DNA of 13,326 nt from a virus. Under the pieces are notes generated by a model that was not told the DNA's origin, made no database searches, and was given only the letters and a program-made list of their open reading frames with translations. The DNA lies in the UHGV virus genome UHGV-0203667; one strand, given 5' to 3'. The translations under genes and the position numbers were made by a program. This document shows positions 532-13,269 of the stretch, piece by piece; the stretch's first letter is position 1, and each line of letters starts with the position of its first letter.

Positions 532-538
532 CCTACCA

Positions 539-562
539 GGGGGCCATCACGGCCCCTTTTTA
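539..562 (+). terminator. Rho-independent terminator of the 1-531 gene
   Basis: GGGGCC (540-545), loop atcac, GGCCCC (551-556), followed by TTTTTATTT. Confidence 0.85.
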
Positions 563-580
563 TTTATCCCTCAATTAACC

Positions 581-610
581 CCTATTTATCCCCTATTTAA
601 TGCCTATTTA
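581..610. repeat. Three direct CCTATTTA repeats at exact 11-bp phasing (581, 592, 603), with a degenerate copy at about 561
   Basis: Read directly: cCCTATTTAtc cCCTATTTAat gCCTATTTAtt. One repeat per helical turn suggests a phased protein-binding or bent-DNA site. Confidence 0.6.
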
Positions 611-691
611 TTGATTTAATCCGTTTTATGTCACAACCGCCCGGTTGACAGAGTAATAGAGAGGGTGTAACCCTTTTTCGTAATACTAATA

Positions 692-707
692 AAATCAATA
701 AGTTAGC
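692..707. repeat. 16-bp exact repeat AAATCAATAAGTTAGC (partner at 8423-8438)
   Basis: The identical 16-mer occurs at both sites on the same strand. Each lies shortly downstream of the end of a plus-strand gene (531 and 8411). Confidence 0.6.
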
Positions 708-761
708 TTAATAAGCCTTTTCTCTATTTTTGTCAAATTTAACATACCCTAAAAAACTGCA

Positions 762-795
762 AAATCTGGCTGCAAGATTATCTGCAGCTGGATTT
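762..795. other. Imperfect 11-bp hairpin or inverted repeat
   Basis: AAATC tg GCTGCA agattatc TGCAGC tg GATTT. Confidence 0.4.
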
Positions 796-981
796 CTTAC
801 ACCTCATTTTGTGGTATCACCCTGGCTAGTTTGTGCATAAATTGAACAGTTTTTAACATTTCCTCCTCACCTGGTAACCACACAAAAAGCTAAAAACGAG
901 GCACAGATAATCTTAGAGGCCTGTTTTCTTGTTATCACTCTGGAAACGCCGTAGAAGTGATTTTGATGAAAGATGACCTAC

Positions 982-1000
982 CCTATTACACCCCTATTTT
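982..1000. repeat. Second pair of CCTATT(A/T) repeats at 11-bp phasing (982, 993)
   Basis: cCCTATTAca ccCCTATTTT; the same core and phase as the 581-610 cluster. Confidence 0.45.
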
Positions 1001-2011
1001 TTGTTATCACAATTGCATCCTGTGCGGTGTATGGCTATGTACTGAAAGCGGTTTTGGGTGTGGGTGTCAGAAATATCCATTAGCGGTATTAATACCTGTC
1101 AGATGTTCGTCTGAGGTGCCAGGCAGGCGCTCCCCTACCTCCCTTTTTTCTTCTAACAATTCTCAAATATCCGACCACTACTGACCACGTTGCTATTATG
1201 TTAATTCTTAAGCTTTGCTGTATGTTGTGCACATTATTTATTCAGGTGGCTGTACGTAAATTCTGTGCCCACTGATCATGATTTTTAAATCAGATTTTGT
1301 AGTGCGCTTTATTAGTGTAGATAAGATCTATTATGTTAAATGCAATTTTCCCAACCCTTCAAATCAATGACTTACGTGTAAGCATGCACTAACACCCCAC
1401 ACAGCACATTAGCCGTATAGATGGCTATACCCCACATATTTGATTGTTTTGTAGTCATTCCCCTGATCATTTAACCAGTATAGCTTGTTATCTGCAGACC
1501 ACAAAATAGGAATTTACATCTGATTAACATAATCTGTTAGCATGATCACTATTACCCACACAACAATAACCCCATGTAAGCCTCTTCAGGCAATTTATCG
1601 GCGTGTTGGTGTGAACAGTCTTTCATGTTCTTTATGAATGCATTGTCCTGTGTGAGGGAAGGATGGACTGCCTCAGGGGCCATACTTATGATGCCCGGTC
1701 AACATAGCTATTGATAAAATCAACGGGTGTTGATCTACATATTTCCCACACATGAGAGGAAATCAGAGCAAAGAGAGAGGAGAGAGGTTTGTTAGTCACA
1801 TATGGTGATTTGAGCTCATCTCAAACCTTCTACGAAGGCCTTTGCTAGTCAAAATAGGTCAATTGACGGCTAATACAGAGTAAAAAATCAGATGCAATCA
1901 CTCCCCACCTGTTGGGATTAACGGCCCCGAGTCAAGGCCTATGCAACGAGGGTATTTCCTACAACCCCTTTCAGTCATACTCAGGCACCACACCCCGGTA
2001 AATATTACCCT

Positions 2012-2320
2012 ACTACCCCGGAAGATTTCTCCGCACTACCTGTAAAATATTTTTACTACTAACACCCTCGAGACGAGGGCTATTTGCACGAGTTTAACGC
2101 TCTCGGGAAGAGCTATAGGCGATTCTACCTGTGAAGAATTTTCACACCTGTGTGTTTATACAGTCATACTTTCCTGTTTTGCAGTCATTGCACCCATGAT
2201 ACACAGCCTCTAACTACTGAAGATTTCTCACTACTTAACCACCATACCTACCCACACCCCTGAGAATTTCTCACCACTACTACCGAAGATTTCTCACTAG
2301 TACCCCTGAGAATTTCTCAC
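2012..2320. repeat. Iteron field: six direct repeats with core GA(A/G)(G/A)ATTTCTCAC, mostly flanked by ACTAC; candidate replication-origin or regulator-binding array
   Basis: Cores sit at 2021 (GAAGATTTCTCcg), 2219, 2262, 2285 and 2308, plus a degenerate palindromic variant GTGAAGAATTTTCAC at 2131-2145. The last three cores are exactly 23 bp apart. A short AT-rich stretch (taaaatatttttac, about 2043-2056) lies inside the field. A wHTH initiator-like gene lies about 1.1 kb downstream. Confidence 0.65.
2146..2165. promoter_or_regulatory. Candidate second LexA box (weaker)
   Basis: ACCTGTGTGTTTATACAGTC has the full CTGT-N8-ACAG core. It matches 14/20 positions of TACTGTATATATATACAGTA and lies inside the iteron field. 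Confidence 0.3.
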
Positions 2321-2342
2321 TCTAATAGATAAAGGAATAGAT

Positions 2343-2387
2343 CAATAAAAAGACCTCCCCCCTAACCCCCAGGGGGAATGGGGAGGG
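2343..2387 (-). terminator. Strong rho-independent terminator readable only on the minus strand, with no minus-strand CDS upstream of it
   Basis: The minus-strand RNA reads CCUCCCC auu CCCC cug GGGG uua GGGGAGG followed by UCUUUUUAUU. On the plus strand the hairpin has no U tract after it. Confidence 0.75.
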
Positions 2388-2389
2388 AT

Positions 2390-2830
2390 CAGAGAGTGGG
2401 GAAGGTTTTCTAAGGGAAAAGCTTAACCCACAAATGAAAGCCTAAAGAGCATGAGCGACTCTTTAGGCAATCTGTGTGGGGTGACAATGTATTCCATACA
2501 TGACACGTCACCCAATTGTGTGTGGGGAGCGTAGTGCTATAGCACGTAGCTTTATAGTGTGGAGTCCGGATAAGAGACTTCTGTTTCCAATCCGGACCGT
2601 TTAAGCGAGTGGTTTCTCGCGCGGGTGCACGCACACATATATAAAGGATACACTCATAAATCGAAAATAAGGCCCCTAAATGGCCTTCTGGCTGCATTAA
2701 CCTGTGTGAGTAGTGCAATTGCATTACCTGACCTCTAAATCGCGTTAGAATCGATTTTAGAGCGCTTAAGGCAAAAGTGCTCTCCCTCCCTTGTGGACTT
2801 GCTTGTACCTATAGCACACCTAAATGATAA
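2390..2830. ncRNA. Candidate structured non-coding RNA or structured DNA region (strand unresolved)
   Basis: There is no credible ORF. Hairpins and palindromes:
- 10-bp perfect hairpin at 2440-2468.
- 13-bp hairpin at 2479-2513, flanked by direct TGTGTGGGG repeats (2473-2481 and 2519-2527).
- 12-bp palindrome GTGCTATAGCAC at 2534-2545.
- 8-bp perfect hairpin at 2564-2597.
- Hairpin at 2669-2687.
- 10-bp palindrome TGCAATTGCA at 2715-2724.
- Two mutually exclusive hairpins at 2733-2762 and 2759-2783. The latter has a G-T pair that only works on the plus strand. Confidence 0.35.
2658..2687 (-). terminator. Possible second minus-strand intrinsic terminator
   Basis: The minus-strand RNA reads AAGGCC auuuagg GGCCUU followed by AUUUUCGAUUU. 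On the plus strand there is no U tract. Confidence 0.4.
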
Positions 2831-2839
2831 TAATTCTCA

Positions 2840-2868
2840 TTGACAATTGGTTGACAATATGATAAGAT
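2840..2868 (+). promoter_or_regulatory. Sigma70-type promoter P1 (TTGACA-17-TAAGAT)
   Basis: -35 TTGACA at 2840-2845, 17-bp spacer, -10 TAAGAT at 2863-2868. A second TTGACAAT sits 11 bp downstream (2851-2858) and a third at 3031-3038. Confidence 0.65.
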
Positions 2869-2903
2869 TATAAATAGGGGGAGAAACAGATCCGGAGGTC
2901 AAT

Positions 2904-3053
2904 GTGGAAATTACAGATGTAATAGCGATCATCAACCTGGCTGTACTGTGGTGCGGTGTTGCCTACATAGCCGGAGTAACTGCAATCGACAACCTTGAAG
3001 AAAAAATGATAGATAAATACAAAAAGATTGTTGACAATCTCGCAAATAGCTGA
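2904..3053 (+). CDS. Small (49 aa) single-pass membrane protein, not in the supplied ORF track (GTG start)
   Basis: GGAGG (2895-2899) plus 4 nt precedes GTG at 2904. The translation is VEITDVIAIINLAVLWCGVAYIAGVTAIDNLEEKMIDKYKKIVDNLANS, ending at TGA 3051-3053. It has a hydrophobic N-terminal helix and a charged C-terminus. The gene has its own promoter (P1) and a downstream terminator. Confidence 0.55.
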   Translation: MEITDVIAIINLAVLWCGVAYIAGVTAIDNLEEKMIDKYKKIVDNLANS

Positions 3054-3059
3054 TAAAAT
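3031..3059 (+). promoter_or_regulatory. Sigma70-type promoter P2 (TTGACA-17-TAAAAT) embedded in the 3' end of the small ORF
   Basis: -35 at 3031-3036, 17-bp spacer, -10 TAAAAT at 3054-3059. It would start a transcript at about 3066, upstream of the 3109-3141 terminator and the 3183 gene. Confidence 0.5.
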
Positions 3060-3108
3060 ATAAATCATAGGGTAATTCTCATCATAGTGAATTTCCTTAA
3101 ACAAAAAT

Positions 3109-3141
3109 GCGGGGGCTTGTCTTAAGTTCCCGTTTCTTTTT
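3109..3141 (+). terminator. Rho-independent terminator or attenuator immediately upstream of the rep-like operon
   Basis: GCGGGGGCUU gucuu AAGUUCCCGU forms a 10-bp stem that includes three G-U pairs, so it folds only as plus-strand RNA. It is followed by UUCUUUUU. Confidence 0.7.
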
Positions 3142-3182
3142 AACCGTATATCATTCTGATTCGAATTATAGGAGGCCCCGTT

Positions 3183-3398
3183 ATGGCAAGCAACGGACCG
3201 ACTAGCCCCCTGGTTAGCTGGACTACTGATGAGATCGTCGAAAACGTGCTCAGCGGCAAGTTTTATAAAAATTCTGTTTATGCTTTTATCCGTCGTAATA
3301 AAGGAAAATATCCACACATTGAAGCGGCAATTTTAGAACTGAACCGTCTTCGCCTTGAGCGTGAGCTGGCTAAATACACCAACAACATTGATAAATAA
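3183..3398 (+). CDS. Small hypothetical protein (71 aa)
   Basis: AGGAGG sits 7 nt upstream of the ATG. The C-terminal half is basic and helical. The gene is immediately followed by the rep-like gene. Confidence 0.7.
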   Translation: MASNGPTSPLVSWTTDEIVENVLSGKFYKNSVYAFIRRNKGKYPHIEAAILELNRLRLERELAKYTNNIDK

Positions 3399-3411
3399 TT
3401 ATGGGGGAACT

Positions 3412-4308
3412 ATGGCAAGTAATTACGGGGAGGTTTTTAATCCCCATTTCGAACGCCTCATTCAGTACACTTTTGATAAACCAGTAGCAACAACAATTGC
3501 TAATAAAAAGACTGGAAAAACAAAAGAGCGATTTAATTTAGACCTGATAGAGGTAACAATTTATGGAAAAATGGCAGGTTTTCATTTAAACGGGCAAGAA
3601 ATATTTATCTCAGAGCAGACCTTAGCAAAAATATGTGGTGTGAGTGATAGAAAAATCATCGAATCTATCAAAACTCTGGAAAATGCCGGGCTTATTTCTA
3701 AAGAAAGCCGGAAAGGTATGTCTAACATTTACAAACTGTTAATTACTCCTTCTCAAATCTGCAAAATGTGTGATGAACAGAAGATAGAACCAATGAGTAA
3801 TGCAGGTGGTGAAGATAAACAGCCTCAGGAAGCCCCAAAACAAGCCACACAGCAAGCTAAAAAGGCTAAAGTAGTGCAATTGCCTACCCAAGACACTAAA
3901 GCGCCTCAAATTAACGCTGTTAGTGACAAGCCACGCCGGGGCCGTCCTGTGAAAGATGTAACCGATGGGGGCTGGATTGTCCTGGGTGAGAGTGAAGCTA
4001 AAGATAGAATGCGCTCACTGTGGGAAAGCAAATACAAAGGTTTAAATAAACGTTGCCCGATCCGTTTGTCAAAGATTCAGGAGGATTTTTACACCACAGA
4101 GGAGGTAATACGCCATAAAGGCAATAGAGACGGTGAAATCTGGAAACCGGAAGAATACTGGCATTTAACCAGACCTGTTTTTATTTTTGCAAATAAACTT
4201 ATTGGGATGGGATTTGAAATATTGTTAGATCAAACTTACGGAGATTATCCTGAAATATTGTGGAGAAATGTTAGAAAGAATAAAAAAGGCATTTTAGAGT
4301 TTAGATAA
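3412..4308 (+). CDS. Putative replication-initiator/O-like DNA-binding protein: N-terminal winged-HTH, Q/A/K-rich linker with AT-hook (RRGRP), C-terminal domain
   Basis: The start is moved from 3355 to ATG 3412 (GGGGGA SD; removes the overlap with the 3183 gene). The motif ISEQTLAKICGVSDRKIIESIKTLENAGLISKESRKG is typical of wHTH initiator or DnaD-like N-termini. KPRRGRPVKD is encoded around 3931-3948. The iteron field lies upstream. Confidence 0.6.
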   Translation: MASNYGEVFNPHFERLIQYTFDKPVATTIANKKTGKTKERFNLDLIEVTIYGKMAGFHLNGQEIFISEQTLAKICGVSDRKIIESIKTLENAGLISKESRKGMSNIYKLLITPSQICKMCDEQKIEPMSNAGGEDKQPQEAPKQATQQAKKAKVVQLPTQDTKAPQINAVSDKPRRGRPVKDVTDGGWIVLGESEAKDRMRSLWESKYKGLNKRCPIRLSKIQEDFYTTEEVIRHKGNRDGEIWKPEEYWHLTRPVFIFANKLIGMGFEILLDQTYGDYPEILWRNVRKNKKGILEFR

Positions 4309-8438: not shown

Positions 8439-8460
8439 CTGACCGGATAAACTCCAGGCA

Positions 8461-8493
8461 AGAAAAAAGCCCCTAAGTGTTAACAAAGGGGCT
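8461..8493 (-). terminator. Rho-independent terminator, strong on the minus strand and weak at best on the plus strand
   Basis: The minus-strand RNA reads AGCCCCU uuguuaacacuu AGGGGCU followed by UUUUUUCU. On the plus strand the stem is followed by CUUCUCC. Confidence 0.75.
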
Positions 8494-8913
8494 CTTCTCC
8501 GGTATCCTTTTGATGCGGGGCAAAACCTGCTAACAAAAATCAACCTCTCGCGAGACTAATGTTAGCAGGTTGCCGGAAGGTAAGTCAACTCCGGCCTATA
8601 AACCTTAAAGCGACTATAAAATTGCCCCGCCAATTGTGATGATCCGACCTTTGAGGCGGGTCCGGTGCCCAGGGGGTGCAGTGATGCACAAACCAGGCAA
8701 CGATAAACAGGCTAACAGTGATAGCGGCGCTCTCTCAGCGCACTAAATCCTAACCAGTCCGGGAAAGAGGCTGGCTCTATCGACCGCTCATGCACGGGAC
8801 AATGCATACCTGATAAAGGATTCTCACAAGGGACCAATCGCGAGAAAAGAAGTGGAAAGGGGCTGATTTGTGGTGTATCACTACGGCCTCAAAAGACACC
8901 CTATTGCCTTTTT
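8494..8913 (-). ncRNA. ORF-free, highly structured roughly 420-nt region between the last minus-strand CDS and its terminator; candidate structured 3' UTR or ncRNA
   Basis: The supplied track has no ORF here. A perfect three-way junction spans 8515-8630: outer stem GCGGGGCAA/TTGCCCCGC (9 bp), inner stem ACCTGCTAACA/TGTTAGCAGGT (11 bp, with a 24-nt loop holding the palindrome TCTCGCGAGA), and inner stem GCCGGA/TCCGGC (6 bp). Further hairpins are GTGCA gtga TGCAC (8676-8689) and GCGCT ctctc AGCGC (8727-8741). The strand is assigned from the terminator orientation only. Confidence 0.4.
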
Positions 8914-11978: not shown

Positions 11979-12452
11979 TTGATCACCTGCGATTTAAATT
12001 AACTCCCCTCAAAGGGCTCAGGTATAACCTCTCAAACCACGACAGGCTCGGGCCGAAAAGTTATGCCGGAAATCTAAAGGGGGATTGATATAAGGAGAGG
12101 GAGATAGCCCCGCACCGTCCAAGCGGGGGCTATTCCATATGGGGAAAACCAACAACAGTTGGCTGATAGTTCACTGCATGGTTACGGTTGCTAGAGAGCA
12201 CTATCACGAAAGGCACTCCCCCGAATCAGTTCAGGCTGCGGTCACATCAGCGGGGAAATACCTTTCGGGATAGCTACCCACACCGAAAACCCGCAAAAGA
12301 AAACTGTGTGGATAACTAGCCCAATAGGAGAATTAATCGACCACTCTAAGATGATCAGGGTAGTGTTATTTATAAGGCGGCACCGCTACCTGGTCGCCGT
12401 TACTTTGGAGGAAAATACGGCAAATCACCTTCGCTAAATGATTCACGGTATA
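11979..12452 (-). other. Roughly 470-nt ORF-free structured leader between the LexA-controlled promoter and the head genes
   Basis: There is no ATG ORF with an SD. Structures include a 10-bp bulged stem ATAGCCCCGC/GCGGGGGCTAT (12104-12133), CCAAC aaca GTTGG (12149-12162), CCACAC/GTGTGG (12279-12311) and others. No hairpin followed by a U tract was seen on the minus strand. Confidence 0.5.
12307..12315 (-). promoter_or_regulatory. Perfect DnaA box (TTATCCACA on the minus strand)
   Basis: The plus strand reads TGTGGATAA at 12307-12315. It is a single copy, so chance cannot be excluded. Confidence 0.3.
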
Positions 12453-13008: not shown

Positions 13009-13269
13009 ATGACGGGGGCTAAAGATATCAGGAGACTGAGGGAAGAGCTGATAGCTGAAATTAAAGCTAAGGCAAAGCAAATGGAGATAGCCGCGCAAAT
13101 GGATGTAGCGGAACAGATGTACAAGATGGTTGAAGAGGGAACACCACGACAGGTTATCGCTAAAACCTTCGGTGTGGGGATCGCCACCGTGCACAGAAGG
13201 CTGAAAGCCTATGCCGACTACCACAACATTGAGAGAGGGGAGGATGGGAGATTTAAGAAGAATAAATAG
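13009..13269 (+). CDS. Small HTH DNA-binding protein (86 aa), coiled-coil N-terminus
   Basis: GGAG lies upstream of the ATG. The HTH segment is TPRQVIAKTFGVGIATVHRRLKAY. Confidence 0.75.
   Translation: MTGAKDIRRLREELIAEIKAKAKQMEIAAQMDVAEQMYKMVEEGTPRQVIAKTFGVGIATVHRRLKAYADYHNIERGEDGRFKKNK

Follow-up and report, generated by a model that had tools for sequence, protein, structure and literature searches.

A composite hairpin block beside the putative lambda-type origin of a 13.3-kb circular element of Escherichia coli

A hairpin-dense block in the non-coding gap

The virus genome UHGV-0203667 (13,326 nucleotides; the whole stretch is referred to as the window) represents a complete circular element of Escherichia coli of about 13.3 kb that carries capsid genes, tail genes and a gene for an O-like replication initiation protein (Rep). 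A non-coding gap of about 2.3 kb (window 532–2903) is unannotated in all the relatives of this element, and its right-hand quarter is occupied by a block of closely spaced hairpins (2343–2830). We analyzed this block in the window and in the related plasmids. We found that the block is a composite and not one unit: it consists of the end of a putative origin, one or several candidate leftward stop signals and a variable array of hairpin cassettes.

The segment running from the invariant AT-rich sequence CTAATAGATAAA (2322) to the start of a gene encoding a 49-amino-acid protein (2904) was compared across 29 loci, which yielded 23 distinct versions of 583–1213 nt. The block is present in all 23 variants and is kept where the Rep proteins are only 40–60% identical. 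The stem-loops listed in the initial annotation of this sequence were all recovered (2354–2386, 2440–2468, 2479–2513, 2564–2597, 2669–2687, 2710–2727, 2733–2762 and 2759–2783), and the last two do share positions 2759–2762. The predicted folding energy of the 506-nt block is −177 kcal/mol for the plus strand and −165 kcal/mol for the minus strand, relative to −140 and −134 kcal/mol for dinucleotide shuffles (z = −5.46 and −4.47, respectively), and none of 100 shuffles folded equally well. Among 132 sliding windows of 150 nt, 2401–2550 and 2501–2650 ranked in the top three for over-folding (z from −3.7 to −5.8). The excess is concentrated at 2401–2650; judged by energy, 2301–2450 and 2601–2850 are unexceptional. 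Few hairpins were found in the other non-coding gaps of the element.

The absence of a minus-strand gene from the block, also stated in the initial annotation, was confirmed. The only candidate is an open reading frame (ORF) of 104 amino acids (2410–2724, minus strand), but its frame, start and length differ among relatives, which indicates that it is not a gene.

The putative origin end and the candidate leftward stop signals

Five iterons of about 21 bp were identified by repeat analysis at positions 2015, 2213, 2256, 2279 and 2302 (span 2015–2322), each with internal dyad symmetry (e.g., GAGAA-T-TTCTC). The last iteron is directly followed by an AT-rich stretch with GATC sites (CTAATAGATAAAGGAATAGATCAATAAAAAGA; 2323–2353), which would represent the DNA unwinding element. 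Next to it lies a G/C-rich palindrome (2354–2386), in which CCTCCCC (2354–2360) pairs with GGGGAGG (2380–2386) around an inner CCCC/GGGG. The AT-rich stretch and the palindrome are nearly invariant across the 23 variants. The sequence of the iterons varies among family members in step with the type of Rep. Iterons differ sharply between plasmids that are otherwise about 92% identical (loci L001–L009), as illustrated by ACTACTGAAGATTTCTCACTA, ACCTGTTGGAATTTCCCACAGGT and ACCCCGGTAAATATTTCCGG; each iteron type retains dyad symmetry, and the differences parallel the divergence of Rep down to about 40% identity. This diversity suggests many incompatibility or specificity types, or an escape from something that targets the origin.

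The organization of this region is similar to the replication origin of phage lambda, which contains four dyad-symmetric iterons, an A-rich stretch and a 28-bp palindrome (PMC3349717). We checked the actual lambda sequence, where the iterons read TCCCTC...GAGGGA, the A-rich stretch covers about 40 bp and the palindrome possesses 12-nt arms that are 92% complementary. The same order of dyad-symmetric iterons, an A/T-rich stretch of about 30–40 bp and a palindrome is observed in the window, with similar spacing. Like lambda O, the initiator of the element matches the PHROG families of “replication initiation O-like” proteins (E-values of 1e-8 to 1e-10) and Pfam HTH_36. Sequence searches revealed no similarity to lambda, and several features set the two origins apart: unlike in lambda, the origin of the window is not inside the initiator gene but some 1.1 kb upstream of it (iterons at 2015–2322, rep at 3412–4308), it comprises five iterons including one distant copy, its palindrome is rich in G/C homopolymers and it is flanked by an array of hairpin cassettes, which lambda lacks.

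These results suggest that 2323–2386 would most simply be the right end of a lambda-type origin and that 2354–2386 would be its flanking palindrome. The initial annotation described the same hairpin (2343–2387) as a very strong minus-strand terminator. The hairpin and the run of T are indeed present and the stem is conserved, but they are better explained by a lambda-type origin palindrome: the look of a terminator arises because the AT-rich origin stretch gives a T-rich tail on the other strand, the T-rich minus strand of 2323–2353 being what supplies the supposed U tract. In lambda as in the window, the palindrome and its T-rich tail resemble a leftward terminator.

Terminator-like sites were searched on both strands of the 23 variants using a fixed and lenient rule (a minimum of 5 pairs in the stem, 3 or more of them G-C, a loop of 3–9 nt and at least 5 T in 8 nt). 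Three minus-strand sites passed this rule: the hairpin at 2440–2468 in 21/23 variants, the palindrome at 2354–2386 in 18/23 and the hairpin at 2669–2687 in 11/23. Across the 23 variants, the rule returned no other conserved site on the minus strand and no conserved site on the plus strand. T-tailed hairpins are confined to the minus strand in the window, as proposed initially, and also in the family variants. They cluster at the origin-proximal end of the block.

The hairpin at 2440–2468, which we named H_B, is composed of a perfect 10-bp stem (GCCTAAAGAG/CTCTTTAGGC), a 9-nt loop and the minus-strand tail TTTCATTTGTGGG. Its stem (10–11 bp across variants) is invariant and its loop is variable; the tail reads TTTCATTT or TTCTCTTT in 21/23 variants and no equivalent exists on the plus strand. 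Previously listed merely as a hairpin, H_B is a credible leftward terminator-like structure, and the best conserved one of the block. Like the intrinsic terminators that insulate origins, it presents a G+C-containing stem, a U-rich tail on one strand only and a location between promoters and origin. Unlike typical intrinsic terminators, it is an “orphan” without an upstream gene, its 9-nt loop is long, its tail is interrupted (TTTCATTT) and the hairpin contains a 9-mer matching the boxA of ribosomal RNA (rrn) operons.

The hairpin at 2669–2687 (AAGGCC/GGCCTT, with ATTTTCGATTT as its minus-strand tail) was also initially proposed as a minus-strand terminator (2658–2687). This assignment is only partly upheld: the stem and the T tail exist in the window, but the rule holds in 11/23 variants only, several variants present a broken stem (C-C or A-G) and an alternative allele keeps the hairpin without a T tract. 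This hairpin is included in the segment of the block with the highest sequence conservation (CCCCTAAATGGCCTTCTGGCTGCATTAAC). The rest of the promoter-proximal zone (2660–2830) contains an 18-bp palindrome, GTAGTGCAATTGCATTAC with the core TGCAATTGCA (2710–2727), which is kept in both alleles of the surrounding sequence; it looks like an operator, although four variants carry a 1-nt deletion in it. Farther right, the two overlapping hairpins 2733–2762 and 2759–2783 occur in one allele only. At this location (2733–2783), unrelated modules are found in other plasmids, and half of the family presents an extra rightward promoter (TTGACAATCTTATTGCATAAATGCTATAAG). The zone ends in an invariant promoter block.

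Two promoter-like elements overlap at this end. P1 is a strong rightward promoter (2840–2868; TTGACA-17-TAAGAT with a TG before the −10 hexamer) whose predicted transcription start site (TSS) lies at about 2875. The candidate leftward promoter Pc (2857–2830, minus strand) is composed of the −35 hexamer TTGTCA (2857–2852), a 16-nt spacer and the −10 hexamer AATTAT (2835–2830). A Pc-like element is found in all 23 variants, with TTGTCA or TTGACA as −35 hexamer (a perfect TTGACA in three of them) and AATTAT or AATCAT as −10 hexamer. Since Pc overlaps the strong P1 back-to-back, both promoters should compete for RNA polymerase. A different leftward promoter had been suggested at 2908–2935, but it is weak (3/6 matches in the −10 hexamer) and it is lost in the divergent loci L004 and L007. 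On the right side of these promoters, a strong rightward terminator (GCGGGGGCTTGTCTTAAGTTCCCGT then TTCTTTTTAA; 3109–3133, plus strand) stands between two near-consensus promoters (2840–2868, TTGACA-17-TAAGAT; 3031–3059, TTGACA-17-TAAAAT) and the genes encoding a 71-amino-acid protein and Rep. It may be an attenuator of rep expression and the real point of copy-number control.

The restriction of T-tailed hairpins to the minus strand and the conservation of a weak leftward promoter make it plausible that leftward non-coding transcription is stopped before the iterons. The predicted product would be an untranslated transcript of roughly 160–400 nt ending before the origin. The suggestion in the initial annotation that a leftward non-coding RNA is halted before the iterons was therefore retained as plausible, with the reservations that Pc is weak and that the stop at 2343–2387 is better read as an origin palindrome.

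Such an RNA was originally thought to end at about 2345 or 2660 and to act as an antisense, copy-number or immunity RNA, in the manner of the counter-transcribed RNAs (ctRNAs) of plasmids, c4 of P1, CI of P4 or the CB immunity RNA of N15. Besides the minus-strand hairpins and the conserved leftward promoter-like element, two observations fit this model: 2669–2830, which would form the 5′ part of the RNA, is the part of the block with the most conserved sequence, and the rightward terminator at 3109–3133 ahead of the 71-amino-acid and rep genes implies that rep expression is probably attenuated by something. However, the specific predictions of the model were not borne out. We searched all 4227 Rfam families at E ≤ 1, including the C4-type and ctRNA families, and found nothing in 532–2903. 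(The sole match in the whole window at this threshold is a weak one, ctRNA_p42d with an E-value of 0.24, and it falls on a hairpin at 8458–8498, outside the block.) The leftward RNA (2822–2440) would lie wholly upstream of the TSS of P1 and overlap no gene, so that it would not be antisense to any. The best duplexes between the two strands of the block and 2870–3430 scored −38.2 and −37.2, relative to −35.3 ± 2.7 and −34.8 ± 3.3 for the corresponding shuffles, and thus show no excess of complementarity. A single local complementarity was found, between minus-strand 2660–2684 and the ribosome-binding region of the 71-amino-acid gene (AGGAGGCCCC), but it does not co-vary: identical alleles of the block are found beside unrelated leaders. 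More generally, the block alleles, the iteron and Rep types and the leader types reassort freely, which is the opposite of what is expected for immunity RNAs that determine specificity. Finally, the terminator at 2669–2687 is absent in 12/23 variants. We consider an antisense, copy-control or immunity RNA very unlikely, the least probable of the explanations that we weighed.

The cassette array and its possible functions

The region between the origin palindrome and the promoter-proximal zone starts with two conserved hairpins (2396–2470), the second of which is H_B. The first one (2396–2431) is formed by GTGGG...CCCAC enclosing GGTTTTC/GAAAAGC; loci L004 and L090 present a TTTTCAT/ATGAAAA hairpin at the same place instead. 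The array itself extends from 2470 to about 2660. Each of its units is composed of a linker of the form (C/A/T)(TG)2-4G2-7 followed by 30–45 nt that form one or more hairpins. The order of the unit types is conserved across the family, while individual units are present or absent and alternative modules replace each other. The window carries three units (U2, U4 and U5); the number rises to six or more in other plasmids.

The first linker of the window, TCTGTGTGGG (2471–2480, plus strand), is identical to the 10-mer boxC of rrn leaders and is found as this exact 10-mer in 12/23 variants. It leads to U2 (2479–2513), which possesses the outer stem GGGTGAC/GTCACCC and the inner stem ATGTAT/ATACAT. 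The second linker (2517–2527) is made of (TG)3 and a run of G, following the length-variable family form (TG)2-4G2-7. It is followed by U4 (AGC-GTA-GTGC-TATA-GCAC-GTA-GCT; 2528–2551) with its degenerate linker AGTGTGG, and by U5 (2564–2597), which has the outer stem GTCCGGAT/ATCCGGAC and the inner stem GAGAC/GTTTC. The reverse complement of U5 seems to resemble a repetitive extragenic palindromic (REP) unit of E. coli. A small hairpin, GCGAG-TGGTTT-CTCGC (2605–2620), stands at the end and is replaced by alternative versions in relatives. These units were all read on the plus strand and defined by folding, inverted repeats and comparison among plasmids.

The linker motif TGTGTGGG occurs seven times in the window, relative to an expectation of 0.32, and its length varies in a microsatellite-like manner. 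The GT-rich motif shows a marked polarity: copies to the right of H_B lie on the plus strand and those to its left (2427, 1745, 1555, 1431 and 1396) on the minus strand, such that the polarity switches at H_B. This pattern holds in all six complete elements.

One type of unit is made of three abutting hairpins: the first has a stem of 5 bp and a loop of 3 nt, the second a stem of 7 bp and a loop of 3–4 nt, and the third a G+C stem of 3–5 bp and a loop of 3 nt. The covariation analysis was conducted on eight versions of this unit, originating from different plasmids or from different positions in the array, and the first two stems were counted; the units of the window (U2, U4 and U5) are not of this type. 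Standard pairs occupy 98.9% of the cells, and 11 of the 12 pairs have changed on both sides; none of 500 shuffles was as good, and sliding the partner by 1–3 columns reduced the pairing to 16–44%. Neither G-U pairs nor one-sided changes were observed in these stems. The third stem is fully complementary in three versions with different sequences (CCGAC/GTCGG, CCC/GGG and CCTTC/GAAGG). These compensatory changes clearly indicate that the base-pairing itself is maintained, be it in RNA or in single-stranded DNA.

Several plasmids reveal that the modules are mobile. In L097, a hairpin module of 47 nt is inserted, in inverted orientation, in the loop of the equivalent of 2440–2468, and it is flanked by a duplicated AAAGAG. 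The loop of H_B is inverted in L004 and L090, and immediately left of it L004 also presents a three-hairpin unit that lies on the other strand. This insertion and these inversions suggest that modules move and flip. The array is reminiscent of the BOX elements of pneumococci, the bacterial interspersed mosaic elements (BIMEs) of enterobacteria and arrays of clustered regularly interspaced short palindromic repeats (CRISPR), in which short conserved joints also alternate with variable modules and whole units are gained or lost. Unlike in these systems, the “spacers” of the array are shared, form hairpins and covary, and the “repeat” is merely a (TG)nGm tract.

We tried to match the array and its linkers to other known systems. 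CRISPR arrays, defined by identical repeats of 24–48 nt, unique spacers and cas genes or a leader, were rejected: the repeat would be a (TG)nGm tract of 8–14 nt, the spacers would be shared hairpins and no cas genes appeared in the Pfam and PHROGs scans. A search of viral contigs for three spaced TGTGTGGG motifs returned only genuine CRISPR arrays and coding repeats, and a scan with the pattern of the 2440–2468 palindrome returned only one unrelated GC-rich contig. The linker was also considered as a mimic of CRISPR repeats or anti-CRISPR RNAs, an integron attC site, a Chi site, an FtsK-orienting polar sequence (KOPS), a Ter site or a DnaA box, but these sequences do not match.

The mobility of the modules is compatible with mosaic palindromic repeats devoid of function, i.e., selfish or neutral units, similar in spirit to REP/BIME and BOX elements, that are shuffled at the GT-rich linkers. 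Units are gained, lost, duplicated and inverted between near-identical plasmids, the (TG)nGm linkers vary in length, the module in the H_B loop of L097 is flanked by the AAAGAG duplication and the reverse complement of U5 seems similar to a REP unit. However, these units are found nowhere else: there was no chromosomal match in 5,426 genomes of E. coli and none in phages or other plasmids. The other non-coding gaps of the element do not carry them and the order of the unit types is conserved. Moreover, the three-hairpin architecture has survived many compensatory changes, a sign that selection acts on the element itself. We view the hypothesis of functionless repeats as unlikely.

We compared 2455–2482 to the antiterminator of rrn leaders, using the real rrnB leader. 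The boxA of rrn operons is UGCUCUUUA (PMC2724277) and their boxC is UCUGUGUGGG, which is located 18–19 nt from boxA in 98% of the rrn leaders of Enterobacteriaceae (PMC10250234). The window and the rrnB leader have the 13-mer CAATCTGTGTGGG in common, which includes the boxC 10-mer UCUGUGUGGG and is preceded by CTCTTTA. The plus strand of H_B contains a weaker boxA, ACUCUUUA, and GACTCTTTAGGCA fits 7/10 positions of GYTCTTTAANA. Its minus strand contains TGCTCTTTA, a 9/9 match to boxA (P of about 0.1 for a 9-mer in the window). The minus strand reads the boxA UGCUCUUUA because H_B is palindromic, and it is then followed by UUUCAUUUGUGGG; both boxA matches lie within the 2440–2468 stem. A second boxA-like copy, GCCTCTTCAGGCAATTTATCGGCGTGTTGGTGTG, is found on the plus strand at 1578–1612 and aligns with 2440–2482. 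This copy (CCTCTT(C/T)AGGCAATTTATC at about 1582–1600) has CAATTTATC in common with the rrn leader. It is kept in all relatives, and reads exactly CTCTTTAGGCAAT in some of them.

The resemblance raises the possibility of a rightward structured RNA, in which H_B, the boxA-like CUCUUUA and the boxC-identical UCUGUGUGGG would recruit Nus factors and shield the untranslated array from Rho. BoxA-dependent protection of untranslated arrays has a precedent in some CRISPR leaders (PMC7665894). The identity of the 13-mer to the rrnB leader with CTCTTTA in front, the second plus-strand copy at about 1582–1600, the CUUCGG loops of several units and the better folding of the array on the plus strand (in 15/16 variants) are consistent with this scenario. 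By extension, the repeated GU-rich linkers might be binding sites for proteins or RNAs, making the RNA a sponge. As in rrn and lambdoid nut antiterminators, with their boxB hairpin, boxA and boxC, a hairpin is followed by a CUCUUUA core and UCUGUGUGGG on the plus strand; on the minus strand, UUUGUGGG comes after UGCUCUUUA.

Unlike in rrn and nut antiterminators, however, the spacing is wrong (5 nt between the boxA core and boxC, relative to 18–19 nt), the plus-strand boxA is imperfect (7/10) while the minus strand has the better boxA UGCUCUUUA, boxA lies hidden within a stem and no promoter was identified: from 1700 to 2830, we found no plus-strand sigma-70 promoter with at least 9/12 matches, except a weak TTCACA-18-CATACT at 2141. 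The statistical support for the similarity is also weak (E-value of 0.05 with blastn-short; 9/200 shuffles reach the local alignment score). The identity to boxC was rejected as a selected feature: only 12/23 variants carry the exact 10-mer, and the linker itself is a (TG)nGm tract of variable length. A rightward RNA protected by Nus factors is therefore improbable in our assessment.

The cassettes could alternatively function as single-stranded DNA. Single-strand initiation signals of the G4 type are known from phage G4 and from plasmids such as R1, R100 and R6K. The origin of G4 (G4ori) is defined by three stem-loops and, immediately 3′ of them, a CTG start site (PMC6783573), and the real sequence of the G4 origin agrees with this description. 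By analogy, the plus-strand cassettes to the right of the origin would fold on the lagging-strand template and serve as starts for the DnaG primase. Like G4-type signals, the main unit types (U1, U3, U3′ and U13) present three contiguous stem-loops with a CTG 0–3 nt after them, at the 3′ foot, near an origin: the array begins 130–330 bp from the AT-rich stretch. The stems rely on Watson-Crick pairs only and most loops are of 3 nt. The strand switch of the GT-rich motif near the origin, seen in all six complete elements, coincides with the minimum of the cumulative GC-skew, which would place the cassettes on the lagging-strand template of a rightward fork. The independence from the type of Rep would fit the recognition by a host enzyme.

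Nevertheless, the units differ from G4ori in several respects: they reach less than half of its size and stability (about −12 kcal/mol over 44 nt, relative to −28.5 kcal/mol over about 100 nt, using DNA parameters), such that SSB, which binds single-stranded DNA, would probably melt them, and they occur as multiple, variable copies in tandem. CTG is not universal, since it is missing after the rarer types of unit as well as after U2 and U4. Some units are inverted (L004 and L097), a replicon that loads DnaB needs no special priming sites and the T-rich tails of the minus strand are left unexplained. We regard a role in priming as doubtful, on a par with the rightward RNA. The 10-mer GTGCCTACGG is common to the complementary-strand origin of G4 (L099) and to stem a of U3 (L002, L003 and L010); this is probably due to chance (rough expectation of about 0.1), and no other sequence similarity to G4 was found.

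The element family and the possible role of the block

The whole window matches, end to end and with 91–93% identity, a set of circular E. coli sequences of 13.2–13.7 kb that are labeled as “non-mobilizable plasmids”. The annotation of these relatives includes a major capsid protein, a tape measure protein, a baseplate (Dit-like) protein, two helix-turn-helix proteins and hypothetical proteins. The Pfam scan of the proteins of the window detected TMP_3, Dit_like and HTH_36, and the PHROGs scan detected a major head protein, a tail completion/Neck1 protein and the O-like replication initiation protein (298 amino acids; 3412–4308). No recognizable terminase or portal was found among the capsid and tail genes of the element. 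The presence of capsid and tail genes without recognizable terminase or portal suggests that these elements are probably plasmid-borne phage satellites or reduced phage-plasmids. The nearest phage relatives of the capsid are rV5/FV3-like myophages, with only about 25% identity.

No phage record presented DNA similarity to the window when the whole window and the non-coding region were used as queries. Outside of this plasmid family, no match was found in plasmids or in the 5,426 E. coli genomes, and no chromosomal copies were detected. At a threshold of 90% identity, the Rep proteins alone fall into at least 100 clusters (39–93% identity), which are encoded almost exclusively on contigs of 13.3–15.7 kb from E. 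coli, Shigella and E. albertii. The 49-amino-acid protein found no match in scans of genome and viral contigs, and a conserved 26-mer had no match in these contigs but revealed two family members in metagenomes. Our literature searches, by description and by accession, found no paper describing this plasmid family.

Several features located outside of the block were observed. A sequence at about 1310–1337 (AGTGTAGATAA-GATCTA-TTATGTTAAAT) shows no variation across 10 aligned relatives. Its right arm corresponds to the XerD arm of the E. coli dif site, and its left arm to 7/11 positions of the XerC arm; it is probably a Xer site (cer/dif-type) for multimer resolution. One relative, NZ_CP043822.1 (L009), is a “plasmid” of 39.6 kb with several matching places (six reported, one of them at 13142–26084), and looks like a head-to-tail multimer of the 13-kb element, which could exist as such or stem from the assembly. 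A perfect DnaA box (TGTGGATAA, which reads TTATCCACA on the other strand) is found at 12308–12316 within a long imperfect inverted repeat (12261–12328); it belongs to the second of the large non-coding gaps, a long way from the iterons. Finally, the most over-folded 150-nt window of the entire element is 8501–8650 (z = −4.8 and −6.1), which contains a perfect 12-bp inverted repeat (AACCTGCTAACA/TGTTAGCAGGTT; 8524–8571). The tape-measure and tail gene blocks converge on this region, which therefore probably represents bidirectional terminators.

Of the explanations considered, the combination of a lambda-type origin flank, a buffer against leftward transcription and a cassette array shuffled by recombination accounts best for the block, and we assign it a probability of roughly 40%. 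The anatomy of the block, its conservation, the covariation of the cassettes, the restriction of the tails to one strand and the agreement with the order of the lambda origin are observed; the firing of Pc, the activity of the stops and the role of the cassettes are what we infer from them. Under this model, the block would be a non-coding spacer between the origin and the knot of promoters of the rep operon. The AT-rich stretch would unwind and be followed by the G/C palindrome (2323–2386). Pc (2857–2830) would send an untranslated transcript leftward through the block, which would end before the origin at 2440–2468 and, in about half of the family, also at 2669–2687, perhaps with the help of Rho loading on the C-rich linkers. 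The block would thereby buffer the origin from the promoters, and the RNA would be either a structured by-product or a regulator. The stems of the cassettes are maintained by selection, and the GT-rich linkers of variable length would likely be the recombination joints at which units are lost, duplicated, swapped and occasionally inverted.

Several observations weigh against this model. Pc is weak, with AATTAT as −10 hexamer, and it overlaps a strong promoter. At 2343–2387, a clean T5 run is found in the window and in about 8/23 variants only, whereas the others present the interrupted tail TCTATTGTGTG. The boxA-like sequences on both strands of H_B are a hint of antitermination instead of termination. 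In 15/16 variants, the array reaches a lower folding energy as plus-strand RNA (by 13.9 kcal/mol on average), although this advantage is probably an effect of composition (G/T richness), because the z-scores are similar on both strands; the counts of G-T and A-C mismatches used to choose the folding strand (21 vs 29) are noisy. The three-hairpin units, without G-U pairs and with loops that are mostly of 3 nt, suit DNA hairpins at least as well as RNA; their short stems also suit RNA, which folds as it is made. A simple insulator does not need covarying stems, and the buffer leaves the array mechanistically unaccounted for.

A further possibility is that the array would be a new modular structured nucleic-acid element in its own right, in which tandem hairpin modules are shuffled by recombination between GU-rich boxC-like (or C-rich) linkers beside an rrn-boxA hairpin. 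Its long untranslated transcript would interact with host Nus factors, Rho or RNases and might serve these hitherto undescribed plasmid-borne elements, which resemble phage satellites, as a decoy, a sponge or a platform for processing; the diversity of its modules would then result from an arms race, either with a helper phage or with host defence. We consider this scenario a speculative one with a low probability, well below that of the origin flank and transcription buffer.

Even if the array is merely an insulator or the debris of recombination, the block illustrates that a hairpin followed by a run of T beside iterons can be an origin palindrome and not a terminator. For this family of elements, the 2.3-kb non-coding region is where replication, maintenance and probably the interaction with a helper are encoded, and a lambda-type layout of the origin permits the rational design of mini-replicons. 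Finally, the cassette array combines clean compensatory evolution with no match in Rfam or outside of the family, which singles it out as a well-delimited candidate for a novel kind of structured element, made of RNA or DNA.

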